Source of the DNA: a virus
Taxonomy: Duplodnaviria > Heunggongvirae > Uroviricota > Caudoviricetes
DNA length: 46,119 nt
Direction: 5' to 3' (one strand)
IMG/VR virus record: IMGVR_UViG_3300037087_000772
Span: 64,001 to 110,119 of that record
This document shows positions 2,605-46,119 of this stretch, one piece after another. Each line of letters opens with the position of its first letter. The stretch's first letter is position 1. A program made the position numbers and the translations under genes. The notes below the pieces were generated by a model. That model saw only the letters and a list, made by a program, of their open reading frames with translations, was not told the DNA's origin and did not search any database.

Positions 2605-2856
2605 TTATTTTATACGGGTAATTTTATAAGTTCTTTGGATATATTCATCTCCAATCTCAGCAAATTCTCCCCAATCAGTAATAGTTTCATCCCATTTATC
2701 ATCCAGAACGGTTTCATCTTTCAATTTTTCTTCTAATTCGGGTAATTCTTCCAAAGAATATTCATCGGTATATCCACGACCAGTTAAATCTTTTAAGAGA
2801 AATAATTTTTCTCCATCAATATCTTCATTTATAAAATCTTTATATCTCTTAATCAT
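2605..2856 (-). CDS. Small acidic protein with N-terminal CTS-like motif
   Basis: Begins MIKRYKDFINE. Confidence 0.6.
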   Translation of the reverse strand: MIKRYKDFINEDIDGEKLFLLKDLTGRGYTDEYSLEELPELEEKLKDETVLDDKWDETITDWGEFAEIGDEYIQRTYKITRIK

Positions 2857-2872
2857 TTTAATTATGTTATTT

Positions 2873-3559
2873 TTACAAATTTACACTGAGATAGCCATGT
2901 CCATATCCAACCTTTTTATTCCAATTTTCAATAGCTTTTCTGGCCTGTTCTTTAATTTTTGAATTTGTTAATAAATTCCTTCCCTCGTTTGTTATTGATC
3001 TGTTTTTTGCTAATAATCCTTTTTTAATTAATCTATCATAAAATTCATCTTGTAATTTTGGTCGTGCAAATGATTTCAAACTTTTTGAGGCGATTAAGAT
3101 TATCAATTCTTCATCAGTTATATCCTCAGATTTCGATGTATCTGGTAGCATCAATTCGGATTTTGGTCCAGTATGAATTATAACTCTTTGTGGATAAGAA
3201 CCATAAACAACAAGTATCATTCCCTCTGGAATTTCAAGAGTTCCACTTTTTTTCTGACCTTCAATATAACCTTGTGGTGAATCAGATTCCCATCCACTTC
3301 TTGTGACAATATTTCCAACGGGAACTGCATTATTATTGGTAAGTCTAAAAAATTGATAAGTTTCACGATCAGCATCATGCCACGGCATACCAATTGTTAC
3401 AGGCTTTCCAGATTGATCCAATCTATATTGTTGAATGTTCTTACCTGATATTTCTTTAGCCCAGTCACGAATTCCGTCTGGAATATTTTTTACCGATAAA
3501 AAAATATCACTTGAATAACTTTCCTTAATAAATTCGATAAAAGATTTTAAATTTTTCAT
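2873..3559 (-). CDS. Hypothetical protein with CTS-like motif
   Basis: Start reassigned to MKNLKSFIEFIKE (ATG 3559), just after stop of the upstream gene. Confidence 0.6.
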   Translation of the reverse strand: MKNLKSFIEFIKESYSSDIFLSVKNIPDGIRDWAKEISGKNIQQYRLDQSGKPVTIGMPWHDADRETYQFFRLTNNNAVPVGNIVTRSGWESDSPQGYIEGQKKSGTLEIPEGMILVVYGSYPQRVIIHTGPKSELMLPDTSKSEDITDEELIILIASKSLKSFARPKLQDEFYDRLIKKGLLAKNRSITNEGRNLLTNSKIKEQARKAIENWNKKVGYGHGYLSVNL

Positions 3560-3563
3560 TTTT

Positions 3564-4574
3564 TCATTCCTCTTTTTTCTTTTCATTTGCTGGTTTGAAT
3601 CTCCATTTAAACCAATAATAATTGTTTTTCTCGATGTAATAGGTTTTATCTTTTATTTTTAACACAATGAAAGGATCATTATTTTGATCTTCGTTGTGTC
3701 CTAAGACTTCAACTATTTTCCCTTCTTTTAAAAAGAATTGTCTACCCATTTCATCTCGAACAGGATTATTGTCCTTCAAATTTATATAAAGAGCTGATTC
3801 TGGTTTAAACCATTTAACCAATTTTTTATACAAATAATTGTTCAATTTTAAAAAATACTCTCTATCAATATAAGGATAACGAGATTCATTCAATAATTCA
3901 GGACAGGTTAAGGCTGGTGGTTTATTCAAACCATTAAAATTTTTAAAAGCTCCGAAAAATTCTTCTTCATTAAATTCAAAAGACAGATAAACATCAAGTT
4001 TTAAAGATTCATTCTGAACCATCCTTAATATCTTCATATTTTTATAATTAACACTATCTTCAAGGAATATATCACTTCTTTTATTGAACCTCGGATCATT
4101 GAATAAATCTTTGGCCATTTTCTGAGACATCTGCATTAATTTATTAGAAGTTCCGGCTGAACGAGCATATTGATCAACATACGGTCTATTATCATCACTA
4201 TAAATAGATAAACTTGGATCTTGAGCAAATCCATAACCCGGACCAAATGGTGTTTGAACTTCTCCACCCATTAAGTATTGATTGAACTCAGATGATTCTA
4301 CTATAATAAAATCCATAAAATCTTCAAATTTTGTAATCATTTGTTCATCTATTTTTTCGAATTGAATCTGTTGATCTTTTAATTTTCCAAGTTGTGTAAG
4401 ATTAACGGTCTCAATATCACCAATTTTCTCCGCACTTCTCATATAACACAATCTTTTTAAAATAATAGACAATTGTTTCTTCTTAGCTTCTTCTGATTGT
4501 GGTGAACCAATACCACCACCATCCCATCCATTAGGATATCCTGTAATCTTTATTTTAAATGTTGTCTTACCCAT
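3564..4574 (-). CDS. Hypothetical phage protein with internal CTS-like motif
   Basis: Start reassigned to MGKTTF below a TATATA element; internal MITKFEDFMDFIIVE at 4340. Confidence 0.55.
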   Translation of the reverse strand: MGKTTFKIKITGYPNGWDGGGIGSPQSEEAKKKQLSIILKRLCYMRSAEKIGDIETVNLTQLGKLKDQQIQFEKIDEQMITKFEDFMDFIIVESSEFNQYLMGGEVQTPFGPGYGFAQDPSLSIYSDDNRPYVDQYARSAGTSNKLMQMSQKMAKDLFNDPRFNKRSDIFLEDSVNYKNMKILRMVQNESLKLDVYLSFEFNEEEFFGAFKNFNGLNKPPALTCPELLNESRYPYIDREYFLKLNNYLYKKLVKWFKPESALYINLKDNNPVRDEMGRQFFLKEGKIVEVLGHNEDQNNDPFIVLKIKDKTYYIEKNNYYWFKWRFKPANEKKKEE

Positions 4575-4643
4575 AATTTTCTTTATATATAAATTTTGTA
4601 TTTTCACTTTTTAATATATACTAAAAATAAAACAAGTCAACAA

Positions 4644-6533
4644 ATGATACAACTCAATAATTTAACACCATTTGAAGAATTCAAAAAAATGTATGAGGCT
4701 GTTAATCTTGGAACTGAGTTCAGTAATACAACAGGTCTAAAAGAATCTCTCCTTGGTAGAGGTATATTTGGTTTATTCAGAATGATTAAAAAAGGAATAA
4801 ACGCCGTAAGATTAGAATATTTTAAAAGAAGATTAGAAAATGAATATTTGGCCGGATTATTGAGATATTGTAAAACCAACAATATAGATTTAAAAAATCC
4901 ACAAGCACTGAGTGACGAGGGAAAGAATGTTGCTAAACAATCATCGGAAGTAGAACAACAGAGAGATCAGGAAATGAAAGAACTTTTAAATGATATTTTA
5001 TCTATCAAATTCGACACTCCAGATTATAAAAAGATTTTAACCGAAACAAAAAATGAAATTAACAAAAATATCACTGAAATTACATCATCTGGATATAAAT
5101 TAGATCAAAGTGATCAAGATTTAATTGAACAATTTAAAAAAGTAAATGAATTAATAGATAGTATTACAATTATTTGTGATAATTTTATATCCTTAAAAAC
5201 AGAATATAAAGAAGAACATATTACAAATATTATCAATTCAGTAAAGAAAATGAAAGTAGATGGATTGAATTACACGGCTTCTGGAAGTGAAAAAGCCCTA
5301 TTAGACACTCACAAAGCAGAACAAGCTGTTCAGAATTTATTGTCTGAATTAAATGCTGTTACTAAAACAACTGAAAGTATTCTTAATGAAAAAGTAGGGA
5401 ATAGTCCAGTTGGTATTGATTTTATTCTTGGTGATGAATTATCAACAGAGGGTGTTGGGGAATTTTTAAACAAACAAGGTGTTAATAATGTTAATGATAT
5501 AAATTTTGTACAGTTATCTAAAGTTTTTAATGATAAAATGAAAGAAAATGCCACTAAGCATGTGAATCAAAACGCCATTATGAGAGTTCAACATGGTGTT
5601 TCAGCTATAATATATCATAAAACTACAACCCCAGATGATAGAGGTATGAATCCGGGAACAGGTGGTGGGATAGATACAGCTCAACCAACTGCACTTTATA
5701 AACCATGGCAAATAAAAGTTCAAAAAATATTGGGAGAATTTAGTCCATTTTTAAATGTTACAGCGATTGATCCATTCAAATTAAATATGTCAAATTATAA
5801 TTTAAGTGAAGATCCCGGAAGTAAGAAACTTAAATCTGAAGATGAAAAGACAAAAGAGATGGATAGATTGTTCAAAATTTCAAAACTTGGACCAACAGTT
5901 GGTATTACCGAAGATTTGAAAAAATTCGGAATGATAAGATTATTTAGATCTGGTAAATTTTATGGACCTGTTTTTAAATTAGAAGAAACAAAAGGTCAAA
6001 GAGTTTACGAATATGTGGGGAGTGTGAACATAGATAATATTAATAAGGATTTAGAAACACTTAAAAAATTAGATGATCCTAATACACAAAAATATGAAAC
6101 TCCATTTGGATCTAAAACAAAAAACGGTCTTGTTCCTGAATTTTTATCAAAAATAATACATGAAAAACAGACAATGAACTCGAAAGATTTAGTCGGGGTT
6201 TATTTTATTTTTGAAAACATTATTTCTTCACCATCAAGTGGTGAACATAGAACAAATAAAGCTCGAATTTTCTTCCTTTATTTCAAACATGGTGCCGGAA
6301 AAACATTTACCAGTACAAATATTCCAGAATTTGAAATATATGGTTTAAATAAAGATGGAAGTAATATGATAAAAATTGATTTGACAAAATTAAATTCAAT
6401 TGAGCCATTTGAGGTCGGTGTGGGTCAAACTTTTGAATTTTCCGATGAATGTCCACTTAAAAAAGATTTCTCAACACAAATAAATAATGTTGGTGTAAAA
6501 TTCCTTGACTTATCAGGAGTTAGTTATAAATAA
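4644..6533 (+). CDS. Large hypothetical protein, possible virion protein
   Basis: Start MIQLNNLTPFEEFKKMYE after TTAATATATA (4611-4620); about 630 aa. Confidence 0.6.
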   Translation: MIQLNNLTPFEEFKKMYEAVNLGTEFSNTTGLKESLLGRGIFGLFRMIKKGINAVRLEYFKRRLENEYLAGLLRYCKTNNIDLKNPQALSDEGKNVAKQSSEVEQQRDQEMKELLNDILSIKFDTPDYKKILTETKNEINKNITEITSSGYKLDQSDQDLIEQFKKVNELIDSITIICDNFISLKTEYKEEHITNIINSVKKMKVDGLNYTASGSEKALLDTHKAEQAVQNLLSELNAVTKTTESILNEKVGNSPVGIDFILGDELSTEGVGEFLNKQGVNNVNDINFVQLSKVFNDKMKENATKHVNQNAIMRVQHGVSAIIYHKTTTPDDRGMNPGTGGGIDTAQPTALYKPWQIKVQKILGEFSPFLNVTAIDPFKLNMSNYNLSEDPGSKKLKSEDEKTKEMDRLFKISKLGPTVGITEDLKKFGMIRLFRSGKFYGPVFKLEETKGQRVYEYVGSVNIDNINKDLETLKKLDDPNTQKYETPFGSKTKNGLVPEFLSKIIHEKQTMNSKDLVGVYFIFENIISSPSSGEHRTNKARIFFLYFKHGAGKTFTSTNIPEFEIYGLNKDGSNMIKIDLTKLNSIEPFEVGVGQTFEFSDECPLKKDFSTQINNVGVKFLDLSGVSYK

Positions 6534-6536
6534 ATA

Positions 6537-7028
6537 ATGATAAATATGATATTAGATTATGACAATTTTTTAAACGAGATAAACACTAATCAACAACCAG
6601 TAGCAGCTAAACCAGCACCAGTTGCCAAACCAGCCACACCAGTTGTTGCTAAACCTGTGTCGACTACTAAACCAGTTGTTGCTAAACCTGTTTCTAAATC
6701 CGTAGAACAACCTAAACCCGTAGAACAACCTAAACCCGTAGAACAACCTAAACCCGTAGAACAACCTAAACCAGTTTCGAAACCTGTAAATCAACCTAAA
6801 CCTGTCACATCCAATCAACAACCGAAACCGACTATAAATAATACAGCTGACGTAGAAAAAAAGATTTTAACACATATAACGAACTTATTCGATACCATTA
6901 AAAAGAAAATATCTGGGAAAAAAGAACCCACAACTCCTGAACAAACTAAGGAACAACCAAAAGAGCAACCGACTGAACAAACTAAACAACAACCAACTGA
7001 ACAAAAACAAGAAACACCAATATTATGA
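6537..7028 (+). CDS. Pro/Gln/Lys-rich low-complexity protein with CTS-like motif
   Basis: MILDYDNFLNE followed by PVAKP, PVEQPK and EQPK/EQTK repeats. Confidence 0.6.
   Translation: MINMILDYDNFLNEINTNQQPVAAKPAPVAKPATPVVAKPVSTTKPVVAKPVSKSVEQPKPVEQPKPVEQPKPVEQPKPVSKPVNQPKPVTSNQQPKPTINNTADVEKKILTHITNLFDTIKKKISGKKEPTTPEQTKEQPKEQPTEQTKQQPTEQKQETPIL
6700..6772 (+). repeat. Coding 18-bp tandem repeat, 4 exact copies (PVEQPK)
   Basis: ccgtagaacaacctaaac starting at 6700, 6718, 6736, 6754. Confidence 0.95.
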
Positions 7029-7408
7029 TAACGAAATTTCAAGATTTTCTCAATGAGGATAATGATATTCAAAAAAGAATATTGGATAGAATAAATAGGG
7101 AATTTGATAAGATAAGGTCAAAAATGCCACCAAGAGAAGAACAATCAAGTCCACCAGAAAAGATAGAACCTGAGAAAAATAAAGAGGGGAAAAAGGTCTC
7201 AAAAGCAAAAGAACCAAAACTCAAACCAGAAGAATCAAGATTTGATGATAAAAGATTAGATGATGCCTTTATTGCCCTGAAAGCTATGGGATATACCGAA
7301 AAGGCAATTATTGAATTTTTGAATAGGATAGAATTAGAAACGACTGATACAGCCGATAGTATTGTTGAGTATGGTGTTAGTAACGCTAAAAAGGTTCATT
7401 TATTCTAA
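7025..7408 (+). CDS. CTS-motif protein with RuvA domain III-like C-terminus
   Basis: MITKFQDFLNE; C-terminal LDDAFIALKAMGYTEKAIIEFL...DSIVEYGV. Confidence 0.55.
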   Translation: MITKFQDFLNEDNDIQKRILDRINREFDKIRSKMPPREEQSSPPEKIEPEKNKEGKKVSKAKEPKLKPEESRFDDKRLDDAFIALKAMGYTEKAIIEFLNRIELETTDTADSIVEYGVSNAKKVHLF

Positions 7409-7409
7409 A

Positions 7410-7445: not shown

Positions 7446-7465
7446 TGATATTTTTTCATAATATA

Positions 7466-7720
7466 ATGAACTCAGAATTAAAAAGAAGGTTTTTCCTTCA
7501 GAAAATTGAAGATTTCAAATCAGATAATTGTCAACCATATCCGACAGTTATTTGTGAAATGGAGCGATCTAATATTATTGAAATAATAAGAAAAAATGTT
7601 CTTTTTTCAACTATAATGAAACCGTGTACTTCATCTAATTTTAATCCAGAAGTAAAAGAAGTATTAGGAAAAGCATCAAATGACTTTGGTGATTTATATA
7701 TTTTAGTATATCCGAATTAA
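7466..7720 (+). CDS. Hypothetical protein
   Basis: Start moved to MNSELK because ATG 7445 abuts the -7 element. Confidence 0.45.
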   Translation: MNSELKRRFFLQKIEDFKSDNCQPYPTVICEMERSNIIEIIRKNVLFSTIMKPCTSSNFNPEVKEVLGKASNDFGDLYILVYPN

Positions 7721-8454
7721 TCCTCAAATTTTTCGATCCCAATTACATTGTATTTTCCATCCTCTTTCAGAGTAATTTCATTTTCATCTGGAAAATATAA
7801 GTTATTTATAATAGTTTCATTTACATCTATTTGATCTTTTGTTGTTTCTATTTCAACAATGAATCCGTTGTGATCTTCATTCGCCATTATTGAATTCAGA
7901 AAATCATGATCTATATCTCCTTTTCTTGTAACATAATGTACACCCAATTGATGCTGTTTAATTTTACTTTCATCTTCCACATCAAGATATCTGAATAAGT
8001 GTAACTGACTTGGAATATTCTTGAATCCTATTGGATAATTTAATTCTGTTTTATCCAAACAATTCTGAATACTTTGTTCGGCTGTCCAACCCACTTGACT
8101 ACTATCGGTTAAAGTTGCCATTATTTTTTCCAAATCCAGTTTGGTTATATTACCGAAAGATTTTACAGTATGTTTTTTTGGTTCTTTTAACAATATAGGA
8201 ACATCACTTTTTTTGATTATGAAATCATATTCAAAATAATCGAATTTTCTATATTTTATCTTATTCAGTTTGAATTTGGTTCTCAATATTCCGGCATTTT
8301 CCCTACCATTTGTGAATATCAAAACTTCATCATTCTTTAATCTATTTAAATATTTTCCCCAATTCTTTTTTACATCACTATAAGAATAAATAGTAAATCC
8401 ATCTTTCTCTTTTGCTTCATTAATAAAATTTTCAAATAGTAATAAATATTTCAT
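7717..8454 (-). CDS. CTS-motif protein with C-terminal ADP-ribosyltransferase-like fold
   Basis: MKYLLLFENFINE; LFRYL...LGVHYVT...PDENEITL resembling ART R / beta2 / E-x-E elements. Confidence 0.5.
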   Translation of the reverse strand: MKYLLLFENFINEAKEKDGFTIYSYSDVKKNWGKYLNRLKNDEVLIFTNGRENAGILRTKFKLNKIKYRKFDYFEYDFIIKKSDVPILLKEPKKHTVKSFGNITKLDLEKIMATLTDSSQVGWTAEQSIQNCLDKTELNYPIGFKNIPSQLHLFRYLDVEDESKIKQHQLGVHYVTRKGDIDHDFLNSIMANEDHNGFIVEIETTKDQIDVNETIINNLYFPDENEITLKEDGKYNVIGIEKFED

Positions 8455-8458
8455 GATG

Positions 8459-8496
8459 ATATATATTAAAAGTGGTTTGTGAAATTAATATATAAC
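8459..8496. promoter_or_regulatory. Divergent pair of TAATATATA elements (putative late promoters)
   Basis: ATATATATTAAA and TTAATATATAAC between divergent genes starting 8454 and 8515; same layout at 4583-4620, 33541-33580, 36245-36282. Confidence 0.55.
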
Positions 8497-8514
8497 GAAA
8501 AACAATTCTTTCTC

Positions 8515-8937
8515 ATGAAAAATCTAAAAACATTCATTGAATTTATAAATGAAGCTGATGCGAAAACTGCTTTAAATGTAATAGGTAGTAAAGAACAGCA
8601 GAAAACAGATGTCAATCAAGATAGAAAAACTCCTGAGGGTGAGAAAGAACAAAAATTTCAACAGAAAACTAAAAATCAGGCACTCACCAGAACAGATGAA
8701 TTAGAAAAAGCAGCTAAAGACATTGATACCAGACAACAGACAGCCAACAAAAGAATGGATGATATAACATTAAAACAAGATTTATTACCAGATGATCCAA
8801 ATAAAAGGAAAGAGTTTTTAGATTCCACAAAGAATGATCTAAAAGATGTTGAGGGAGAACTTAATAACGCGGAACAACAAAGAAAATCACTTCAAAAACA
8901 AAAAGATAGGATCAAAAATAACTTTTTAAAGAAGTAA
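8515..8937 (+). CDS. Coiled-coil protein with CTS-like motif
   Basis: Start MKNLKTFIEFINE (ATG 8515); charged helical C-terminus. Confidence 0.6.
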   Translation: MKNLKTFIEFINEADAKTALNVIGSKEQQKTDVNQDRKTPEGEKEQKFQQKTKNQALTRTDELEKAAKDIDTRQQTANKRMDDITLKQDLLPDDPNKRKEFLDSTKNDLKDVEGELNNAEQQRKSLQKQKDRIKNNFLKK

Positions 8938-18058: not shown

Positions 18059-18297
18059 AATACAAAGATTAATCTATTAAATGACACAAGAAGAATGTTA
18101 TTTCTATTTAGACATGGAAAGGATTTTTATACGACTTCATACAATTTTTGAACTCGGTGGTGATGGAAGTTTTATTGCCAAACAAAAATTATATATGTAC
18201 CAACAGTTATTTAAACCCGTATATTCAAATGGTGATGTGTATATTGATTTTTCTGGGTGTATTTGTTTTAATTAGTGTAATTAATAAAATTTAAGAA

Positions 18298-30131: not shown

Positions 30132-30167
30132 TACAAAGATACGATCTTTATGCGAGATAAAAAAATT
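30132..30167 (-). promoter_or_regulatory. Bacteroidota primary-sigma-type promoter
   Basis: Minus strand AATTTTTTTATCTC-N9-TCGTATCTTTGTA upstream of cca. Confidence 0.65.
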
Positions 30168-30198
30168 TATATATAAAGAAAATTGAGTTATTTTCTCT

Positions 30199-31146: not shown

Positions 31147-31729
31147 AATATTTGAAAGTAAACAGATTGGTGTGTTATATCATTTCACTACTTTGAGTAG
31201 CCTTTTCGACATGATACTTCGAGCAAGATATGTAACAAGTGAGGAAAACAAAATATTTCTCAAATTCGGATATAAAACAAATATTTCTCTCAGTAGAAAT
31301 TTTAATATGAAATCATCAGAATTAAAAATTGAAAAACAATGTGTAAGAATAGTCATCAATGGAGATAAATTATCAAATCATTATAAAATTGAACCTTTTT
31401 CAGATCCAATATATGATAAAACTCGTTCAGAAAGAGAAGAAAGAATTATGAGAGGTAGAAGAGATGATGTCGCCGATATTACAAATTATATCATTCAAAT
31501 TGATGTTTTAAAAAATCCAGTATTAGCTGATCTTTATCCTTGGAAGCCTATTAATTCATACACTTTTTCAGATCCGAAAAATACTCAATTAAAAATAAGT
31601 GTATCCGAAACAGATGAAATCATTAGATTATATGAAATGTATTTGAAAGAAACCCTAAGATTTTTCGGTTTTTGTAAATTCAACTTTAAAATTAATGTAG
31701 TTGATAAAATGAATCCTGTTCGACTATGA
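31130..31729 (+). CDS. CTS-motif protein with ART-like fold
   Basis: MIKEFKIFES; LYHFT, ISLSRN, INGDKLSNHYKI, EREERI. Confidence 0.5.
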   Translation: MIKEFKIFESKQIGVLYHFTTLSSLFDMILRARYVTSEENKIFLKFGYKTNISLSRNFNMKSSELKIEKQCVRIVINGDKLSNHYKIEPFSDPIYDKTRSEREERIMRGRRDDVADITNYIIQIDVLKNPVLADLYPWKPINSYTFSDPKNTQLKISVSETDEIIRLYEMYLKETLRFFGFCKFNFKINVVDKMNPVRL

Positions 31730-32673
31730 TAACAGATTTTAAAATATTCGAAAGTAAAAATATACAGAATCTTTATCATATATTGGATACTGAAAAATTA
31801 TACTATGTCTTAAAGAATAACGAAATCACATCTTATAAATTTCACTATATATCAACCACGAGAAATAAAATGATGAATGGGTATACTGGTGATAACTCAA
31901 CTTCAATTTTTAAACTTGAATTGGATGGTCCGAAATTGACAGACAATTATAAAATGAAATCATTTCAAGACAGTGGGTGGGAACTTGGTACAGATAATGA
32001 AAGAACTCATTTTTATCATCAGGAATGGGAAGAACAAATACAAACCAATAAAATTAAAAACGCAAAAAAGTACATTGTCAAAATAATATTACTGAAAAAC
32101 AGGATAGATAGATTGAAAGATAGTTCATGGTTCGAAAATCATTTTAGTGAAAGAGGTAGAAAATCAAAATGGATAAATTTACCTGATATATTGAAAGACA
32201 TCATCGACAAATATAAAATAGAACTCTGGGTTCAGGATGGTTCAGTAATCAAAAAAGACGATGAATATGTAAATAGTATCATCAATTATGATGTCAGAAA
32301 AAAATATCATGGATTTGCTTTATATTGGAGGGGATATATTACCCAGAAAGATAGATTTGGTTATTTGGAAAAAACTTTACCATTGGATAAAAGAAATCCA
32401 AAAATAGAAAAACTGGTAGTCGGATATACATATGATAATCTCTGGGTGAAATCAAAATTAGATATATCAAAGAATCTTATAAAAAACAGACCAAAAATAT
32501 TCAAAGCGGAAGCATCATTAAACATCTTCAATTTCGAATATGATGAAGATGATATTCTCAAAAAAGAGGGTGATTTTATTCTTTTAAAACAAGGTAAATT
32601 AAAAGAAATAGATCCAATTCAGAAATATGATTACGCTTGGGATAGAGAAATGGTACTCGATACAGAATTTTAA
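31726..32673 (+). CDS. Paralogous CTS-motif ART-like protein with C-terminal extension
   Basis: MITDFKIFES; LYHIL, ISTTRN, LDGPKLTDNYKM, EWEEQI. Confidence 0.5.
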   Translation: MITDFKIFESKNIQNLYHILDTEKLYYVLKNNEITSYKFHYISTTRNKMMNGYTGDNSTSIFKLELDGPKLTDNYKMKSFQDSGWELGTDNERTHFYHQEWEEQIQTNKIKNAKKYIVKIILLKNRIDRLKDSSWFENHFSERGRKSKWINLPDILKDIIDKYKIELWVQDGSVIKKDDEYVNSIINYDVRKKYHGFALYWRGYITQKDRFGYLEKTLPLDKRNPKIEKLVVGYTYDNLWVKSKLDISKNLIKNRPKIFKAEASLNIFNFEYDEDDILKKEGDFILLKQGKLKEIDPIQKYDYAWDREMVLDTEF

Positions 32674-32781
32674 TCCCAAAAAGTTTGTTTTTTCATATTT
32701 TTTTCGTAATATATAATACTTTATTTTAAAAAATAAATCCAATGTTTTATGGACTGACAAAATAATGATTAAAAAAGAGAA

Positions 32782-33159
32782 ATGAAAAAAAACGGATTTG
32801 GACCTCATTTGATGTTAGATTTAAATGAGTGTAATGTAGATAAGTTGAACGATTACAAATTCATTTTTGAGTTGTTGAACACCATTCCTGATAGAATTGG
32901 GATGACAAAAATAACACAACCCTATGTGTTTCCATATTCTGGGTTAGTTCCTGAAGATGAAGGAATAACTGGAATAGTAATAATAGCAGAAAGTCATATA
33001 AGTATACATACATTTCCAAAAAAGAAATATGTTTTCATTGACATTTTTTCATGTAAATACTTTGATCTGGAAAATATAAAGCAAGAACTAATCAAGACAT
33101 TTGAATCTAAAAAGTTTCATGTTCATTTCACCGAAAGAGGTAAAGATTTTCCGAGATAA
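32782..33159 (+). CDS. speD: S-adenosylmethionine decarboxylase proenzyme
   Basis: FGPHLMLDL, GITGIVIIAESHISIHTFP, FIDIFSC; E-S self-cleavage site. Confidence 0.92.
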   Translation: MKKNGFGPHLMLDLNECNVDKLNDYKFIFELLNTIPDRIGMTKITQPYVFPYSGLVPEDEGITGIVIIAESHISIHTFPKKKYVFIDIFSCKYFDLENIKQELIKTFESKKFHVHFTERGKDFPR

Positions 33160-33519
33160 TTATTTCTTCAATTCATCACCCAAACCATAAAGAAGATAAA
33201 CCTGAGATGTATTATTAAAAAAAGCGTTAGGGTCCATTACATCACTATCACCTTGATTGATGACTGTACCAGAAACATCTACCGTTCTTTTTAATTCATT
33301 TAGTTTATCTTGGGATTCTTTAGTTTGTTTATCCCATTCGTTTGGTCCCTGATTACTATATTTTTCATAATCAGGATAATAATCGTCCTTATTCTGATAT
33401 CCTGATGCATCACGAACCCTGATATCAAACCCATTTACATTTTCAGATTCATTCACATTTTCATATGGTTCTCTGTGAATGTTGAATCCGTTTGGAGAAT
33501 AATTGTAATAATCTTCCAT
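33160..33519 (-). CDS. Hypothetical protein
   Basis: Start MEDYYNY; TAATATATA upstream on minus strand. Confidence 0.5.
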   Translation of the reverse strand: MEDYYNYSPNGFNIHREPYENVNESENVNGFDIRVRDASGYQNKDDYYPDYEKYSNQGPNEWDKQTKESQDKLNELKRTVDVSGTVINQGDSDVMDPNAFFNNTSQVYLLYGLGDELKK

Positions 33520-33599
33520 AGTATTCACAGTTATTTTCTTTCTATATATTATTTCGGAATGATCCTATTTTATATATACAAAAAAACATAGATTATTTT

Positions 33600-34280
33600 A
33601 TGAAAAGAATAGATCCAACAAATACAACATTGATTAATGATTATAATAAAGAAGAAAAACTTACCGAATTAGAATTTTTAAGAAATGATGTTAAAGACTT
33701 ATTAGATGAAATGGATGATTTTCCTACTCCACCACCTGATTTATTACCGGGACTAAATTTAGAACGACAAACACACGATTACGAAAGAGATTTGGAATTA
33801 ATAAAAGAAGAAACCAAAGAAACTCTTGATTGTATATCGAGTTTATATCTTGATGACGAAACAATGCAAAAGAAAAACATATCAAATATTATCCGAAATG
33901 ATGCGGAAACAATTTGTACCATAAAATTTTCAATCGAATGTGCCAAACGTGGTTTAGTTTCTTGTATGAAACAATTAGATGCCGGAACAACTAACGCTGA
34001 AATGTATATGGCTGTTAGTGCTTTTCAAAAGGAAATTCGAGATAGTAGTAAAATGAATTATGAACTCGTAACAAAAATGAAAACATTTTATAAAGAATTA
34101 AGAACCGAATTAAAACAAGATAATTTGAATATATCTGGGGATTCACTTTCTGATCATCCACAACCTAAGATTGGTTCAAAAGAAAACGAGGGTTTATTTG
34201 TGTTCGATCCAAAATTAATAGATGATATTTTGGAAGAACGCAAAAAAAATCCCACCCTTTTAGATGGTGGGACTTTTTAA
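33600..34280 (+). CDS. Hypothetical coiled-coil protein
   Basis: 226 aa; TTTATATATAC upstream. Confidence 0.55.
   Translation: MKRIDPTNTTLINDYNKEEKLTELEFLRNDVKDLLDEMDDFPTPPPDLLPGLNLERQTHDYERDLELIKEETKETLDCISSLYLDDETMQKKNISNIIRNDAETICTIKFSIECAKRGLVSCMKQLDAGTTNAEMYMAVSAFQKEIRDSSKMNYELVTKMKTFYKELRTELKQDNLNISGDSLSDHPQPKIGSKENEGLFVFDPKLIDDILEERKKNPTLLDGGTF
34250..34272. terminator. Hairpin at convergent gene junction
   Basis: tcccacc-N9-ggtggga flanked by A and T runs, inside last codons of 33600-34280. Confidence 0.55.
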
Positions 34281-34286: not shown

Positions 34287-35105
34287 TTAATCATTATCAA
34301 GATTAGAATTACCATGACTATCAACACTTGGTTGTACTCTTTCATCATCTTTTATACCATATCTATTTGGTCTCCCTTCTGATTTTATTGATGAATATTT
34401 ATCAGGATATAAATATTTAACAAAATCTTCATCTTTAAGGGTATCTACTGGTATTTTAGGATATTCATATCCATATGTATCATTTGCGAAATATTTCTTC
34501 TCCTTATGATTAATATCAATAACACACAAACCTAAGTCGTTATACTTATAATTAAATAGCATTAATTTTTCTTTTTTGCCTCTTATATAGAAAGTTATGG
34601 TTATACCATTTACTCCCTCATTCCTGACGAGCGGAGATACTTCCGATGAACCGACAATATTTTTTAATCTTTGTCCTAATTCCTGAGCATATGTAATAAT
34701 TTCACTATCTTTCATTTCTACAAATTTCTCAAATGTTTTTGATTCATATCCTCTATCCACTACATTGATTAATGTATCTGGACTTCCAGCCTTACCAGAT
34801 GGATCAAATATTTCTGGTTCTACATCATATTCAGAACCAAGATATAAAGTCATAAAAATTCTGAATCCCGTTATATGTTCGATTAATTCATCAACAACTT
34901 CTTCTGGGGTATCTGTTACATTACTCATAAGATATTCTTTCAATTCTTCATTGGTAGAATCCTCGTCATTATTAACAATCTCCATCAACATATCCCAATC
35001 AGCTAAATTAGAATATTTCTTTTTAAATTCAGTAACCCATTGTAAAAATTCCTCTTTTTTTGGAATATCACTTCTTTCATTGATGAAATCTTTAAATCTT
35101 TTCAT
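34287..35105 (-). CDS. CTS-motif protein
   Basis: MKRFKDFINE; internal SKTFEKFVE. Confidence 0.6.
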   Translation of the reverse strand: MKRFKDFINERSDIPKKEEFLQWVTEFKKKYSNLADWDMLMEIVNNDEDSTNEELKEYLMSNVTDTPEEVVDELIEHITGFRIFMTLYLGSEYDVEPEIFDPSGKAGSPDTLINVVDRGYESKTFEKFVEMKDSEIITYAQELGQRLKNIVGSSEVSPLVRNEGVNGITITFYIRGKKEKLMLFNYKYNDLGLCVIDINHKEKKYFANDTYGYEYPKIPVDTLKDEDFVKYLYPDKYSSIKSEGRPNRYGIKDDERVQPSVDSHGNSNLDND

Positions 35106-35114: not shown

Positions 35115-35435
35115 TTATTTTTTTGGTCCATTCAATACAAAATCAGAAAACTTGGTAAAAACTTTTGGCTTATTATTTTTATTACCTTTTTTACTTTTCT
35201 TACTTTTTTTTCTATCTAATTTATCAAAACGATCACCCATATCATAAGCTGCTCTATCCCCACTTCCGACAGTACCAGATCCACCTTGCCAAACTGAACC
35301 CGGAAGTGAACCGACTTGAGCTGTTGTTATATTACCCATTCCATTGATATTGGCTGTAGCAAAAGCTGTACCACCTCCACCGTCTCCATCTTCATTTAAC
35401 TTTATGTATTCACTATATTTTATAATTTTTTCCAT
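35115..35435 (-). CDS. Gly-rich CTS-motif protein
   Basis: MEKIIKYSEYIKLNE; C-terminal VFTKFSDFV. Confidence 0.55.
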   Translation of the reverse strand: MEKIIKYSEYIKLNEDGDGGGGTAFATANINGMGNITTAQVGSLPGSVWQGGSGTVGSGDRAAYDMGDRFDKLDRKKSKKSKKGNKNNKPKVFTKFSDFVLNGPKK

Positions 35436-35438: not shown

Positions 35439-35666
35439 TTACTTTTTAATTTCTTCAACACTGAAATCGTGTAAATAATTTGTTCTTTTAAATTCACTTG
35501 CCTCTCCTCTTGTTTTAAATTGTTTTGCATCTTTCTTAGACTTTGAAGTAATAATATGATCTTTCATCATAATTTCTTGAAAATATGTATTATCTTTATC
35601 TTGCAAAACAAAAACTAATTTATCTTTCTTTTCTGTGAATTCTTCGAATAATTTGATGTATTTCAT
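35439..35666 (-). CDS. Small CTS-motif protein
   Basis: Start MKYIKLFEEFTE (ATG 35666). Confidence 0.55.
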   Translation of the reverse strand: MKYIKLFEEFTEKKDKLVFVLQDKDNTYFQEIMMKDHIITSKSKKDAKQFKTRGEASEFKRTNYLHDFSVEEIKK

Positions 35667-35692: not shown

Positions 35693-36223
35693 TTATCTCC
35701 ATGTTGTTTGATTTTCCCAATATTTTTTATTTAATTTGGTTATTGATTTTTTTTCTTCACCAGATTTACCAAAATTTATTACTTTCACTTTATCACCTTC
35801 TCTTGCTAAAACACGATATTTATGTTTACCTTTTCCCTCATATTTCTTCGGATGATTAAACCCCGGAAAAGTTTCATTCCTATATTTTAAACCATGAGCC
35901 AAACGCTCAACATCTACACTCTCTCCCTCTGTTAATAGAGATTCTTCCATTTCTTCACCACCTTCCATATATTCATGTCCATCTAATTCGAAACCATGTT
36001 TTTTTGCGTATATATCCGCGTGATAATAAACATGATCAATCCCACTACCGTTTCCTATTAATTCTTCTACGCTGTCATATTCTGGTAGTTGACCATTTTC
36101 TTTACACCATAAATCATAATGATATAACCAATGTTCCAAGATGTTATCAGGTATTAGACCATAATCTACCTCGTAGTAATCACTCTCATTAATAAATTCT
36201 TCATATTTCTTAATTCTTTTCAT
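35693..36223 (-). CDS. CTS-motif protein, acidic N-half and basic C-domain
   Basis: MKRIKKYEEFINE; C-terminal FPGFNHPKK...VLAREGDKVKVINFG. Confidence 0.6.
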   Translation of the reverse strand: MKRIKKYEEFINESDYYEVDYGLIPDNILEHWLYHYDLWCKENGQLPEYDSVEELIGNGSGIDHVYYHADIYAKKHGFELDGHEYMEGGEEMEESLLTEGESVDVERLAHGLKYRNETFPGFNHPKKYEGKGKHKYRVLAREGDKVKVINFGKSGEEKKSITKLNKKYWENQTTWR

Positions 36224-36302
36224 GGTATGTGAAATAATTTTCTGTTATATATTAATTTCTAACAGTGATTTTTTATATATACCTAAAAATAACTGACACT
36301 AA

Positions 36303-36878
36303 ATGAAAAAAGGATATGTTAAACTTTTCGAGGAATTTATTGATGCCGACTATGATATGCAGAGAATTATAAAAGAATTGGAAAAAAGAGCCAATCATTG
36401 GTTCGAAAAAGGTGAACTATCAAAAGATGCCCAATTGGTTGATATTAAACAAACAGAAACGGCAATCTCCACAAGAAAAAGTTTAGTGGTCGAATTCAAT
36501 GATAATGAATTTTATTATCAAGTGATTATAAGGGTAAATATAGAACACATGGATAAATGTGAATTAATAATTAAAAAATACAATCCAAATGCAAAAGATG
36601 GTGATACTTTAAAATTAGAAGATCAATTAACATTAACTGGTGAAGATAGTATTGATGTGAATGATATAAAAGGAAAATTCATACTTGATAAGATATCGGA
36701 ATTAAATGGAAAAAGTAAAAATCCAGATGAAAATGATATAGATATTCCAAAAGAACCAGAACCACCAGAACAACCAGCTCCAGAAACACCACCTGAAGGT
36801 GAAACACCACCTCAATCACAAGCACCACCACAAACTCAGGGGGGTCCACCTGCACAAGAGGCCCCACCATCATTATAA
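36303..36878 (+). CDS. CTS-motif protein with Pro-rich tail
   Basis: MKKGYVKLFEEFID; PEPPEQPAPETPP tail. Confidence 0.6.
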   Translation: MKKGYVKLFEEFIDADYDMQRIIKELEKRANHWFEKGELSKDAQLVDIKQTETAISTRKSLVVEFNDNEFYYQVIIRVNIEHMDKCELIIKKYNPNAKDGDTLKLEDQLTLTGEDSIDVNDIKGKFILDKISELNGKSKNPDENDIDIPKEPEPPEQPAPETPPEGETPPQSQAPPQTQGGPPAQEAPPSL

Positions 36879-41146: not shown

Positions 41147-41166
41147 TTTGGTTTGATTTTGGTTCG

Positions 41167-41195: not shown

Positions 41196-41199
41196 TGTT

Positions 41200-42816
41200 T
41201 TATTTCAGAATCTTTATTGCATCAGTAAACCACCTTGGAAAATAATTTGTCTTTTTTAATACATCAGAAAAACAACTATCTAAAATAAAGGTATGACCCC
41301 AATCTGTATCAGATCTAACCACACGTCCATAAGCTTGCATAATTTCTATACAAGTTGTGTAATCGTACCATTTTTTATTACTTCTCTGTCTGGCTTTAAT
41401 TTTATTACTACTTATATTCGGATATGGCACCTTTAATAAAATTTGAAAGCGCGATAATTCATCGTCTAAACTTATTCCAGTGGTCATGGAAGGAGAGACT
41501 ATTACTTTATTGTCATTATTATTTATAAATCCTTTATAGATTTTTTCTCTATCTTCTGTCTCGTGAAATATCAATCTATCACTTTTAATCGAATTTTTTA
41601 TCCAATTCGCCAATTCATAATTTGTTGTATGAATTATTCCATTATTTTTTTCATATTTTTTTAATATATTTTCTATAACGGGTATTTGATTTTGAAATGT
41701 CAATTCTTTAAGATTATAAGTCATTTTACCGATATTCTTCGTATAATACAAAGGTCTATTTTCTAATGGAAATGTAGAATCTAAAGAATAAAAATCTGTT
41801 AGTTCAAGTGGTAATCCATTTATATAACAAAACATTTCTCGATCTAAGATTGTACCACTCATGAATATGACATGATCATAATTACACCATATATATTCAT
41901 TCAAATAATCATAACCCCAAATTGGTTCGATAAGAAGTTCTAAATTTTTTTCTTTATTATAAACTCTATCCAAAGACCAGTTTTCCGGATCTTTCTCATA
42001 TTTTTCTAATATAGTTTCAAACTTTTTTAACTGACTTGATGTATAAGTGTAATATTTAGTATATTCTTTTACAGCTTCGTCTGAACCATCTGATATAGCA
42101 GTTTCAAATTTACTATTTAAAGCCTTGACTTTTGGAAGAAAATCATCAGCTAAAAAAGTCATAAATTGTTTTATCGATGTAATTTTTATGAATTTTTGTT
42201 TATAAAATTCAATCTCAACCAGTTCCATTCCATATTTTTTAAGTAACTTGGCACTTAGTTTAGTGGATAAAAAGTCACAAAACACAGATTCAAAGGTTGT
42301 TGCTTCATCGCAAATTAATACATTACTACCTCTTTGTTTAATTATTGTGGGTTGATACATTGAAAGACTATTGAACATATGAAAATTCGTAATACCCATT
42401 TCTGAACCAATCCACACTTTTTTAGCAAAATCATAAGGACAGGAAGTACATTTTGTTTCCAAAATATTATTAAGTTCTTTCCCCTCTTGACAGTTACAAC
42501 TATGTTGTTCACATCTGTAATTTGATTGTCCTTTTAAAACTTGTATAAAATCGAAACTTTCTTTATATTGTTCTTGGAGAAGCTTACTATTTGTAATGAT
42601 GTCAAATTTAGCATTTTCATCTACATTATTGCGATACCAATTAGCAAACATTGTAGTGAAATACGATTTTCCACTTCCTGTGGGCATTCCAAGTAAAAAA
42701 AATTTATGACCGGAATTTATACCCTTTTTAAGTTTTTGTAAAATTTCAATTTGTTGTGATCTTGGTTTCATCTCCATTGGGAAATGAATATCTATCTTAC
42801 CATCTATATTTATCAT
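41200..42816 (-). CDS. DinG/Rad3(XPD)-like SF2 helicase
   Basis: RSQQ, PTGSGKS, Cys cluster, LICDEAT, FMSGT, KVPYP, QAYGRVVRSDTDWG. Confidence 0.85.
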   Translation of the reverse strand: MINIDGKIDIHFPMEMKPRSQQIEILQKLKKGINSGHKFFLLGMPTGSGKSYFTTMFANWYRNNVDENAKFDIITNSKLLQEQYKESFDFIQVLKGQSNYRCEQHSCNCQEGKELNNILETKCTSCPYDFAKKVWIGSEMGITNFHMFNSLSMYQPTIIKQRGSNVLICDEATTFESVFCDFLSTKLSAKLLKKYGMELVEIEFYKQKFIKITSIKQFMTFLADDFLPKVKALNSKFETAISDGSDEAVKEYTKYYTYTSSQLKKFETILEKYEKDPENWSLDRVYNKEKNLELLIEPIWGYDYLNEYIWCNYDHVIFMSGTILDREMFCYINGLPLELTDFYSLDSTFPLENRPLYYTKNIGKMTYNLKELTFQNQIPVIENILKKYEKNNGIIHTTNYELANWIKNSIKSDRLIFHETEDREKIYKGFINNNDNKVIVSPSMTTGISLDDELSRFQILLKVPYPNISSNKIKARQRSNKKWYDYTTCIEIMQAYGRVVRSDTDWGHTFILDSCFSDVLKKTNYFPRWFTDAIKILK

Positions 42817-42836
42817 TCATATTTTAGAAAAAAAAT

Positions 42837-43619
42837 CTATTTTAGTTTATAAAATTTTCTAATTTTTCTTCTTATTGGTGAACCAATTCCACCCGTTTTG
42901 TTCTTATTTAATATATTCCATCCATTATTTATATATTTTTGAACATATTCTTCCTCTTTGATTTTTGATTTTTCTACATCAATATAGTCAGTTAATTGTA
43001 TTCTATTTGGTTGAGAATTTGTTTCTTTAATATGCTTATAAACAGGTCCACTTTTCATATGATAAGAATGTCTCACATTTAAATTAAAAGTCAATCCGAC
43101 ATAAACAAAATTGTCTGTAAATTCATAGGAATATATACATCTATTGAATAAATCTCCTTGAATTAAATGAGTACATAAGATTAACCAATTATTTTGTAAA
43201 CATAATTGATATGCCCTCGATGAATAAATACTAAATCCTATCCTACTTTCATACTTTAATGATTCATTTATACATTTTTCTTTTGTCCAATAATTTCTCA
43301 ATTTTTTAGGTTTCATGTGAGAACAAACATCATCCAACCATTTTTCTTTTTGACATCTACTATAAACTCCCGGATTTTCATTAAAAAAATCAATTCTTCT
43401 ATTATATTTCAATGCTTCTTCTTTACATTTTTCTTTTGTCCATTTTAAATTATATGGGGTTGGTCTATTCATATGTGAACAGACATCATTTAACCAACCA
43501 TTAACATAAGCACTATTATAAGATGACCCGGAATTTTTCTGATATTCGAATCTACTCCCATATTTTAATGCTTCATCTTTACATTTCTCTTTCGTCCATT
43601 TGAAATTGTGTGGTTTCAT
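42837..43619 (-). CDS. Homing endonuclease with KWTKEKC repeats and C-terminal GIY-YIG domain
   Basis: Three W-T-K-E-K-C repeat units then CIYSYEFTDNFVYVGLT...R...H...E...GWNILN. Confidence 0.8.
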   Translation of the reverse strand: MKPHNFKWTKEKCKDEALKYGSRFEYQKNSGSSYNSAYVNGWLNDVCSHMNRPTPYNLKWTKEKCKEEALKYNRRIDFFNENPGVYSRCQKEKWLDDVCSHMKPKKLRNYWTKEKCINESLKYESRIGFSIYSSRAYQLCLQNNWLILCTHLIQGDLFNRCIYSYEFTDNFVYVGLTFNLNVRHSYHMKSGPVYKHIKETNSQPNRIQLTDYIDVEKSKIKEEEYVQKYINNGWNILNKNKTGGIGSPIRRKIRKFYKLK

Positions 43620-43780: not shown

Positions 43781-43896
43781 AATAATCGAAGTGTTTTTAT
43801 AGTATATATAAAGTTTTTAAAATCATATTTTTTCTATTTTCCATATATTTTAATTTTTTTATTCAAGAAAAATGATTATATTTGCCAAAAATTATT

Positions 43897-44178: not shown

Positions 44179-44257
44179 ATGATAACTCGTGAGTAAAATG
44201 TCTTTCTTTTAAAAACCAAACTCCATTTCCAAGATATATAAGAAAAAACCTAATCCG

Positions 44258-44410
44258 ATGGGTAGACCAAAAATAACAAACAAGAAAAAAAGCTTATCAA
44301 TATCAGTTAATATTGAATTGGATGAAATCTTAGATAAGATTTGTAAAGAGAAGAATGTGAATAAATCAAAGTACATCGAATACTTGATTAAAAAAGAAAT
44401 GAACAAATAA
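44258..44410 (+). CDS. RHH-like minigene D (50 aa)
   Basis: Hand-translated MGRPKITNKKKSLSISVNIELDEILDKICKEKNVNKSKYIEYLIKKEMNK; 44 of first 47 aa identical to RHH-C. Confidence 0.8.
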   Translation: MGRPKITNKKKSLSISVNIELDEILDKICKEKNVNKSKYIEYLIKKEMNK

Positions 44411-44411
44411 C

Positions 44412-45131
44412 ATGACATTAACTATCATCTCTATCATATTATCGATTGTTTTATTTTTTATTAGCTTATCAATATCAATTCTATTATTTATTATTCGTCC
44501 TATTTTTGATGAATTAACAAAAATTTCCAGAAGTTATAATAATTTTTTTGAAGATGAATTTCATCATCCTCTTTCCTTCGATTATAAAAATGGAGGAAAA
44601 ATAACAAATATTTATCAAAAAATAACAATAACCAACCACAATTTTGATAGACCTTTAGAAAAAATAGAATACATAGATAAATTGAAATTGGGTTTATTTT
44701 ACAGTGAAGAAGAAAGAAAAAGTAGTAAAATAATTGAAGATTTGAATACCATAAGAAGAAGATTAGAATTAGAAATAGTGTGGCTTAAATATGATGAAGA
44801 ATCTAATGAAATTTTAAAAAGATATAAAAGTATTGATTTTGAAATTAAAAAACTCCAATATACTGCATCTAAAAAAGATAGAAATTTAGCTTATAATGAA
44901 ATAGATGAAATTTACAATAAAAAAAAAGAAGATGAATTTTTCATTTTGAATAATGATTGTAGATTTACTGGACTCATTTCTGATTGTGAAGGAAATATAA
45001 AACATTCTGAAAGAAAATTCGAATTCGAATTTAAAAGATTAACAAGAATTGATGTCTTATTTGATAAGTATCCCAAACTTAAATTATTTTGGCTTTTTAT
45101 GGTATATCCAAATTCGAAATATTTTGACTAA
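44412..45131 (+). CDS. N-terminally membrane-anchored protein (cassette 2 cargo)
   Basis: MTLTIISIILSIVLFFISLSISILLFII; starts 1 nt after RHH-D stop. Confidence 0.6.
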   Translation: MTLTIISIILSIVLFFISLSISILLFIIRPIFDELTKISRSYNNFFEDEFHHPLSFDYKNGGKITNIYQKITITNHNFDRPLEKIEYIDKLKLGLFYSEEERKSSKIIEDLNTIRRRLELEIVWLKYDEESNEILKRYKSIDFEIKKLQYTASKKDRNLAYNEIDEIYNKKKEDEFFILNNDCRFTGLISDCEGNIKHSERKFEFEFKRLTRIDVLFDKYPKLKLFWLFMVYPNSKYFD

Positions 45132-45142
45132 AATAACTATTT

Positions 45143-45805
45143 TTATTCTTCTTCAAAAGATTCTAAAGCATTTAATTTTGTTGAAAGTTCATCATATTCA
45201 CCAGAAAGTTTGGTCGCTTCATCTGTATCCTTATCCATATGACGTAATAATTCGTCAATTTCTAAAAGTCTATTCCAAATTTCTTCCTTGGTTTCGGGAT
45301 TCAATTTATCTTCATTCAATTTTGTAAATTCATTGAATGACATTATTTTTCTTTTTTCTGTTATTTTTTCACCCTGAGGAACACTTTCATCTTTTGAGGG
45401 GGTTTCCTTTTTAGGTTTTTCCTCTCTTTTCACATCTTTATCTATTTTCACATTGTAAAATTCCCCCCCGAATATTTTCCCACTTTCAATTCGGCCATGA
45501 TGAAATTTTCCATCATAAATATGTCCTGCTTTGAATATACCATTGTACCAAGTACCATTATACCAAACTCCATCTTCCCAAGTTCCGTATTTCCAAACCC
45601 CATCACGAAAAACACCATATTTCCATGTTCCATTAAAAAATGTACCTGAATTGAAAATAAAATGTCGTTGAGTTATTTCGATCCTAACTTCTTCTACCTC
45701 ACAATCTAAAAACCATTGGAATCCTTCTTTAATAAGAATTTCATCAATCTTATATTGTTCAGTATAAGTTTTTTTATTATATTTTAGTTCTTTGTATCTT
45801 TTCAT
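45143..45805 (-). CDS. G-x-(W/F)-x-x pentapeptide-repeat protein with internal CTS-like motif
   Basis: GTFFNGTWKYGVFRDGVWKYGTWEDGVWYNGTWYNGIFK...; IMSFNEFTKLNE near C-terminus. Confidence 0.6.
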   Translation of the reverse strand: MKRYKELKYNKKTYTEQYKIDEILIKEGFQWFLDCEVEEVRIEITQRHFIFNSGTFFNGTWKYGVFRDGVWKYGTWEDGVWYNGTWYNGIFKAGHIYDGKFHHGRIESGKIFGGEFYNVKIDKDVKREEKPKKETPSKDESVPQGEKITEKRKIMSFNEFTKLNEDKLNPETKEEIWNRLLEIDELLRHMDKDTDEATKLSGEYDELSTKLNALESFEEE

Positions 45806-46119
45806 TATATTCCAAAATAATGTTCTATTTGATCTTTTATATCTTCGATATCACCTTCTATTCCATGTTTATCATCATTTGGAAAACTAAGTACATCACC
45901 AGTTGGGAAATCAAAAATTTTATATTCCCAATCCCCTATATTATCATTTACATCGAATTGATATTCTGTTTCATCGATAGATATTACACCGATCCATCCA
46001 CCTAATCCAGCATTTTGTAAGTTCACAATTTTTACACCGTGTATCTTTTCTAACTCCTGAATTTCATCTTTTGGACTATATCCAGATTGCTCATTTACAA
46101 ATTCTTTGAAAGTTTTCAT
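45805..46119 (-). CDS. CTS-motif small protein (start at window edge)
   Basis: MKTFKEFVNE. Confidence 0.55.
   Translation of the reverse strand: MKTFKEFVNEQSGYSPKDEIQELEKIHGVKIVNLQNAGLGGWIGVISIDETEYQFDVNDNIGDWEYKIFDFPTGDVLSFPNDDKHGIEGDIEDIKDQIEHYFGI

Follow-up and report, generated by a model that had tools for sequence, protein, structure and literature searches.

Tagged genes of the window

The window analysed here is a 46,119-bp stretch of tailed-phage DNA, bases 64,001–110,119 of the 110,119-bp IMG/VR record IMGVR_UViG_3300037087_000772 (29% G+C). Sixteen of its genes, all starting at ATG and with open reading frames (ORFs) of 75–629 amino acids (aa), encode proteins that open with the same type of short peptide, called the tag below. 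The tag consensus is M-(K/I)-x-[F/Y]-x-x-[F/Y]-[I/L/V]-x-E, and the commonest form is M-K-x-F-K-x-F-I-N-E. Many of the tagged genes lie in runs headed by a promoter-like box, T[AT]ATATATA. Coordinates refer to the window unless the record is named.

At the left end, the minus-strand run 4574–2605 follows a box, TTATATATA, at 4584–4592 (minus strand). It consists of an untagged 336-aa gene and two tagged genes, 2873–3559 (228 aa, MKNLKSFIEFIKE; a further ATG lies nine codons upstream at 3586) and, last in the run, 2605–2856 (83 aa, MIKRYKDFINE). The plus-strand run 4644–7408 stands behind the box TAATATATA at 4612–4620 (plus strand) and holds the weakly tagged gene 4644–6533 (629 aa, MIQLNNLTPFEEFKKMYE), gene 6546–7028 (160 aa, MILDYDNFLNE followed by a Pro/Ala-rich linker) and gene 7025–7408 (127 aa, MITKFQDFLNE). 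Genes 7717–8454 (minus strand, 245 aa, MKYLLLFENFINE) and 8515–8937 (plus strand, 140 aa, MKNLKTFIEFINE and then Ala) diverge from the intergenic segment 8455–8514, where a box at 8460–8468 (minus strand) is paired with one at 8486–8494 (plus strand).

The plus-strand run 30199–32673 begins behind a box at 30167–30175 (plus strand). Its first gene, 30199–31146 (315 aa), encodes a HAD-like protein with a DFDGVLH motif and a degenerate tag, MIITEFNKF. It is followed by two paralogues, 31130–31729 (199 aa, MIKEFKIFES), of an ADP-ribosyltransferase (ART)-like family, and 31726–32673 (315 aa, MITDFKIFES), whose N-terminal domain is modelled with the ART fold. The minus-strand run 36223–34287 consists of four tagged genes behind a box at 36246–36254 (minus strand): 35693–36223 (176 aa, MKRIKKYEEFINE), 35439–35666 (75 aa, MKYIKLFEEFTE; an alternative ATG lies 12 codons upstream), 35115–35435 (106 aa, MEKIIKYSEYIKLNE, then a Gly-rich linker) and 34287–35105 (272 aa, MKRFKDFINE). 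Gene 36303–36878 (plus strand, 191 aa, MKKGYVKLFEEFID) diverges from this run behind its own box at 36273–36281 (plus strand). The two intergenic segments with opposed boxes, 8455–8514 and 36224–36302, each drive divergent tagged genes in a compact bidirectional arrangement. The last tagged gene, 45805–46119 (minus strand, 104 aa, MKTFKEFVNE), has the box TTATATATA about 20 nucleotides (nt) upstream, just outside the window.

The original prediction had listed about 16 such N-termini, and all of them were found at their coordinates and strands, each opening an ORF. In three of the 16 the tag is weak; its end in genes 4644 and 30199 is not a clean aliphatic-x-Glu, and in gene 36303 it ends F-I-D. 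The part of the record upstream of the window adds nine tagged genes, which brings the total to 25 of 176 genes (~14%, about one in seven), and one more lies within 10 kb past the window end. At record positions 32210–33919 (minus strand), a 569-codon frame contains a tagged start, MLYSFSEFLNE, at codon 131, with a promoter box 16 nt ahead of it. This frame is probably over-called, and the true gene would be a tagged one of 439 aa at 32210–33529.

Enrichment of the motif at protein N-termini

The tag resembles the N-termini of the internal proteins of phage T4. In the T4 sequence (AF158101), IPII and IPIII begin MKTYQEFIAE followed by Ala, and IPI begins MKTFKEF, with ITE/A at residue 19 (the slash stands for the junction after Glu); the peptides named in the original prediction agree with this entry. 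The maturation site of gp23 is FGSFLTE/A, and gp22 begins MLKEQLIAE/A. The first 10 residues of IPIII are enough for incorporation into the head, residues 4 and 7 mainly govern targeting and residues 8 and 10 govern processing (PMC9026906). Cleavage by gp21 takes place after L/I-x-E, in line with the removal after Glu stated in the original prediction, and the IP propeptides are 10–19 residues long (PMC9026906).

The strict motif used for counting, [FY]xx[FY][ILVM]xE, was taken from T4 and not from this data, and was scored in the first 20 residues of each of the 176 proteins given by a simple gene call of the 110-kb record. It occurs at 15 of the 176 N-termini, whereas shuffles of the same residues give a mean of 0.64 and a maximum of 5 in 2000 (Poisson p ~5e-16). 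This comparison with shuffled controls had been named beforehand as a check on the prediction, and the enrichment bears it out. Windows starting at an internal Met give 1.03 expected matches against the 15 at gene starts. Inside proteins, with the scaffold repeats described below excepted, the motif appears about six times in roughly 33,000 residues. When the 25 tags are aligned on their anchor, the aromatic pair is spaced by three in 19, and the aliphatic-x-Glu site is present in about 20, being missing or atypical at 30199, 4644 and 36303.

The tag in other viruses

A DNA pattern for M-K-x-F-K-x-F-I-N-E finds at least 118 stretches in IMG/VR, against 1 for a ten-codon scramble and 20 for a nine-codon scramble. 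Among the 120 matches listed, 118 have no upstream in-frame ATG, and 105 of the 110 complete ORFs reach 50 aa or more. Ala or Ser follows the Glu in 58 of the matches listed, and the bodies form 43 clusters. Of 39 tag-bearing records of at least ~20 kb, 13 contain the Gp23 capsid gene; of the nine records with a completeness of 90% or more, eight do. The gene is present in 1 of 10 scramble-control records, a difference in the expected direction from a control too small to be significant alone.

A T-even-like genome served as positive control. The strict expression selects six genes there, including the IPIII homologue and the genes at the IPII and IPI loci, one of which begins MKTFKEFINE/A. 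The density of strict matches per 100 kb is 3.5 in the T-even-like genome, 7.1 in another low-GC megaphage fragment and 12.7 in this record (~23 after curation). Apart from the IP loci, in a 170-kb T-even-like IMG/VR genome two small ORFs, of 54 aa (18096–18260) and 76 aa (112496–112726), have CTS-like starts and begin MKTYKEFIKE and MLLKFKQFLYE, respectively; the first resembles T4 gene 61.1. A search of the open-access literature, which excluded subscription journals, gave no paper on tags of this kind in megaphages.

These counts bear on an alternative explanation, an artefact of composition or translation in which AT-rich codons (for K, F, I, N and E) pile up after start codons. Every consensus residue does have AT-rich codons, and the genome has only 29% G+C. 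With 15 matches observed against 0.64 in shuffled sequences, and at least 118 IMG/VR stretches against 1 for the scramble, the artefact is effectively refuted and its remaining likelihood is negligible.

Level of selection and the tagged protein bodies

Synonymous codons vary between the tags (TTT/TTC, ATA/ATT/ATC, GAA/GAG), and at the nucleotide level the likeness between genes does not extend past the promoter box. Because the tag codons differ synonymously, selection acts at the level of the peptide and not of a DNA repeat. A BLASTP comparison of the bodies minus their first 20 residues gives a sole link, between genes 31130 and 31726. The claim that the tagged proteins are unrelated therefore stands for bodies without mutual similarity and fails for this paralogous pair, so that there are 15 families in the window and not 16. 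No significant Pfam domain was found in the tagged bodies of the window; weak sub-threshold matches (PhdYeFM, wHTH, DUF3450), one of them in the product of gene 2873–3559, were not used. The search of viral contigs found no relatives of the 629-aa (4644) and 272-aa (34287–35105) proteins, and the latter has no homologue among 5.8 billion proteins. For the 629-aa and 245-aa proteins, the ESM Atlas yielded nothing usable on function.

The tag is portable, as had been proposed. The bodies behind it are unrelated, and two families have both tagged and untagged members. It is also absent, again in agreement with the original prediction, from the housekeeping proteins of the record: DnaK, L31, a dUTPase-like protein, a helicase, a NUDIX protein and an amidase. 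The DnaK/Hsp70-like gene (23412–25319, minus strand) is full-length and encodes 635 aa. The ribosomal protein L31-like gene (27516–27794, minus strand) begins MKKGIHPKEY. Both were judged from the N-terminal sequence only.

The HAD-like family of gene 30199 is one of those with mixed members. Among its eight homologues, five are clearly tagged with varied sequences (e.g. MITYNEFLLE, MRTFAEWLLE), two have a degenerate aromatic-pair start like the window copy, and one begins at the domain and is untagged; the linkers from tag to domain vary as well. One homologue (P0004, 397 aa) carries the full tag MITYNEFLLE, then an inserted domain of ~230 residues containing YYYHFTDNKNLPSILKNGLIP, and then the HAD-like domain. 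The motif in the insert resembles the L-Y-H-x-T start of the ART-fold family, and judging from this resemblance the protein seems to join two tagged cargo domains.

The family of gene 31726 has 188 cluster representatives. Among the 150 listed, the domain lies near the N-terminus in 131, of which 113 have a Glu 3–9 residues ahead of the conserved L-Y-H. Two residues ahead of this Glu, 81% have I/L/V/M, and directly behind it 69% have A/S/G; leader length peaks at 9–10 residues. An AlphaFold (AF2) model of the 31726 product, made with 72 sequences, has a predicted local distance difference test (pLDDT) score of 90.2, with the first 10 residues unstructured. Residues ~8–175 of the model align by VIA-align with Tpt1 (Z 9.2), KptA (Z 7.7) and DarT (Z 7.2), and ART folds make up almost the whole of the top 50 structures; Foldseek returns the same families with weak matches. 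On this model the N-terminal domain has an ART fold. In the 72 members H18 and E102 are invariant, and Y17, S43, T45, R46 and E100 are near-invariant. Pfam ART matches in the family are sporadic, coming from single members below threshold. One well-tagged member lies on a 670-bp contig without neighbouring genes. Upstream of the window, a 166-aa gene beginning MIKKFKIFEE gave no match in hmmsearch with the ART-family profile. An hhalign match of its product to the family was rejected as circular, the protein itself being in the alignment.

One alternative is that the shared start is kept by recombination of cassettes at the DNA level, or by descent of a single fast-evolving family, and not by a function of the peptide. 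The clustering of tagged genes in variable regions behind a common box, sometimes as divergent pairs, would suit such an explanation, as would the paralogy of 31130 and 31726. Its difficulties are the differing tag codons and a nucleotide similarity that ends at the promoter box. The bodies also differ in fold, and among the listed IMG/VR matches the same peptide heads 43 unrelated clusters. The conservation in the ART family fits a cleavage site more than mere descent. We consider this explanation very improbable.

Promoter association

Of 24 tagged genes, 11 have the box T[AT]ATATATA at a distance of 9–60 nt upstream, against 19 of the 152 others (odds ratio 5.9, p = 3e-4). The proposal that tagged genes or their runs follow a promoter box is thus supported by a significant association, and most tagged genes without a box of their own sit behind a boxed gene of the same run. 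The box also stands ahead of genes of the structural region. It is plausibly a late promoter.

Head genes and a scaffold built from the tag motif

A T4-type head module lies upstream of the window. It encodes the major capsid protein (record 41764–43593, Pfam Gp23 1.4e-27), the portal (record 46613–48310, Portal_T4 1.2e-64) and a head-closure protein. Between the portal and capsid genes, 17.8–20.3 kb upstream of the window, lies the gene of an 818-aa protease-scaffold fusion (record 43698–46154, minus strand). A search for the prohead protease gene had been named beforehand, and it led to this gene. Its N-terminal third, about residues 1–240, is a gp21-type protease (phrog_207, 8.4e-25), for which Pfam S77 gives 23.9–26.5 bits with a cut-off of 27. 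A hidden Markov model of the protease domain recovers the gp21 gene of the T-even-like genome (6e-5) and that of another 170-kb T4-like genome (4e-10). In the protease domain, the conserved His motif EFDHP and Ser motif VSSRAAG align with GELNHP and GVSSRG of gp21.

Beyond the protease lies a coiled region, then (residues ~320–470) a tandem array of about 11 units, each 14 residues long and with the core Y-x-x-Y-[I/V]-A-E. An acidic linker rich in Pro, Glu and Thr and a conserved domain at the C-terminus complete the 818-aa protein. Eight of the units satisfy the strict tag expression, accounting for eight of the nine strict matches within the protein. The repeats are kept in six relatives at 71–79% identity, and no comparable tandem repeats were found in T4 gp22 or in the scaffold of the 170-kb T4-like phage. 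One unit, IKYSEYI, is repeated exactly in the tag of gene 35435. The tag resembles one loose scaffold unit because the scaffold core carries about 11 copies of the same motif. The start of the capsid protein, K-W-x-P-I-L-E, is T4-like, and at residue 47 the protein has a conserved H-x-x-H-I-N-E which, from its sequence, is likely the maturation site. A complex prediction with residues 1–480 of the protease-scaffold protein and the 104-aa tagged protein scored 0.00 and gives no answer either way.

An M16 (insulinase/pitrilysin-type) peptidase of 368 aa is encoded at record 57425–58531 (plus strand), behind a promoter box and adjoining structural genes. A second protease, of a family that removes presequences, is unusual for a phage head region. 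M16 enzymes take off N-terminal presequences in other systems. The peptide might accordingly have a destination other than the head, such as this M16 peptidase, the DnaK of the phage, a membrane or a compartment; the presence of the M16 gene beside structural genes, together with DnaK, speaks for it. The tag, however, is acidic and aromatic, unlike a basic amphipathic presequence. It matches T4 at all four functional positions, the same motif builds the protease-scaffold protein, and elsewhere the tag co-occurs with Gp23. An address other than the head is accordingly improbable.

The motif-built scaffold bears on a further possibility, that the tag is read by the head protease and the core, and that most tagged proteins are temporary parts of the core or assembly, like T4 gp67, gp68 and gp22, which are degraded and expelled. 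The scaffold is itself made of the tag motif, many tagged proteins are small, helix-rich ORFans without an enzyme domain, and T4 core proteins are likewise substrates of gp21 (PMC9026906). Set against this, the folds of at least two tagged families (ART and HAD-like) resemble those of enzymes, which would make poor sense in a disposable scaffold. Most tagged proteins have a single N-terminal site rather than many internal ones, and the same tag marks injected internal proteins in T-even phages. We hold this possibility to be unlikely, though it deserves more weight than the other alternatives.

Source genome

CheckV estimates the record to be 23% complete. Two longer contigs, of 736,551 bp and 597,284 bp, also encode proteins of the record, and because of this recurrence the record is taken as a piece of a 0.6–0.74 Mb phage genome. 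The host probably belongs to the Bacteroidota, which fits the lipoprotein-type signal peptides encoded in the window. About 5–8 kb past the right end of the window, an 807-aa protein (locus L172:2353–4776) has precomputed Pfam matches to Vault_3 and MVP_shoulder and is apparently vault-like.

A model for loading of the head

We propose that the shared peptide is a T4-type capsid-targeting sequence (CTS) combined with a prohead-protease site, by which proteins dock on the core, are cleaved, are released inside the head and leave with the DNA. We put the probability of this reading at about two in three (0.68). It is the simplest one: a targeting and processing tag of the T4 kind, used at much larger scale in a lineage whose scaffold carries the same motif. 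Docking, cleavage after Glu, retention in the virion and injection are inferred here by homology with T4.

In this model, tagged genes would be transcribed during head building, largely from the T[AT]ATATATA box. The two aromatic residues of the tag, three apart, would dock the protein onto the prohead core, which would be formed by the C-terminal part of the protease-scaffold protein with its ~11 Y-x-x-Y-[I/V]-A-E units. The gp21-type serine protease would then cut after Glu in scaffold units and tags alike. Cutting would destroy the scaffold and free the cargo inside the head, and the cargo would exit with the DNA at infection.

Several points weigh against the model. The tags at 30199, 4644 and 36303 are imperfect and have no clean site. 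The residue before Glu (P2) is preferably Asn in the tags and Ala in the scaffold units, so the two motifs are alike and not identical. The S77 score of the protease is just under the cut-off, and the status of the box as a late promoter is itself inferred. Some tagged proteins could be degraded core components and not injected cargo. Isoelectric points show no greater basicity in the tagged proteins than in the untagged (p = 0.36), in contrast to T4 IPII and IPIII, and the argument that they bind DNA like T4 internal proteins was dropped for this reason.

The CTS has been anticipated as a possible general route by which T4-like phages load proteins into the capsid (PMC9026906). A more far-reaching version of the capsid-targeting model, which we offer tentatively and consider rather doubtful, is that a lineage of huge Bacteroidota phages has made the CTS a general loading system. 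The tag would mimic a scaffold unit. Any protein gaining these 10 residues would co-assemble with the scaffold and be freed inside the head once the fused protease cuts all units together, and perhaps on the order of 100 or more different proteins would be injected, including nucleic-acid-directed enzymes of the ART fold. This number extrapolates 25 tagged genes per 110 kb to 0.6–0.74 Mb.

If this version is true, the packaged host-takeover proteome of this phage would go far beyond any described for a tailed phage.

In T4 a few proteins carry the CTS, and they disable host defences upon injection. If a megaphage uses the same address on ~14% of its genes, its huge genome and capsid would partly serve to carry a large, fast-evolving set of ready-made effectors. 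The tag would serve as a simple rule for recognising, from sequence, candidates for injected proteins, for anti-defence or takeover, in uncultured T4-type phages, a candidate list that metagenomic data do not otherwise yield. The motif-built scaffold also suggests a testable docking mechanism, and the binding partner of the tag is undefined even in T4. Because the tag is near-identical to that of T4, the idea can be tested in T4 and Escherichia coli without culture of the megaphage.

Comparison with known systems

The closest known system is the CTS of T4 IPI, IPII and IPIII (Mullaney and Black 1996; reviewed in PMC9026906 and PMC3012670). Both peptides start at the initiator Met and span ~10–19 residues, and in both, positions 4 and 7 are aromatic, position 8 is aliphatic and position 10 is Glu. 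The MKTFKEF of IPI is identical to the first seven residues of gene 46119. In both systems the tag stands on unrelated proteins in variable loci, and the genome has a gp21-type protease and a gp23/gp20-type head. The differences are in scale, with 25 tagged genes per 110 kb here and ~6 in a 170-kb T-even-like genome, in the preference for Asn over Ala before Glu, in the probable Bacteroidota host and in the genome size of 0.6–0.74 Mb. In BLASTP, the tagged bodies gave nothing below E = 0.08 against T4 IPI, IPII, IPIII, Alt, gp67, gp68, gp22 and Inh. In size, the present phage matches the huge phages associated with Bacteroidetes that Al-Shayeb et al. 2020 (PMC7162821) described, and the likeness is one of size.

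The assembly machinery can be compared with T4 gp21, with the gp22/gp67/gp68 core and with the gp23 propeptide. The protease domain is homologous, with conserved His and Ser motifs. The capsid protein has a homologous N-terminal propeptide (K-W-x-P-[IL]-L-E), and a cut after aliphatic-x-Glu is expected. In ordinary T4-like phages protease and scaffold are separate genes without repeats, whereas here a single 818-aa protein combines them with ~11 motif units.

T4 Alt is an ART that is packaged in the head and injected. Genes 31130 and 31726 likewise appear to encode an ART-fold protein with an N-terminal leader resembling a head-protease propeptide, going by the structural model. There is no sequence similarity to Alt, and the predicted fold of the 31726 product is nearest to the nucleic-acid-directed clade of Tpt1, KptA and DarT (Z 9.2–7.1).

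The phiKZ-like jumbo phages (phiKZ, 201phi2-1 and SPN3US) carry ejection or inner-body proteins that are cut at S/A-x-E by a gp21-related protease (PMC9026906). The likeness lies in the many head-internal proteins and in a gp21-related protease cutting after Glu, features which for the present phage are predicted from its genes alone. The propeptides of the phiKZ-like phages are long and varied and have no short common N-terminal address, whereas here one T4-type tag of ~10 residues is reused.

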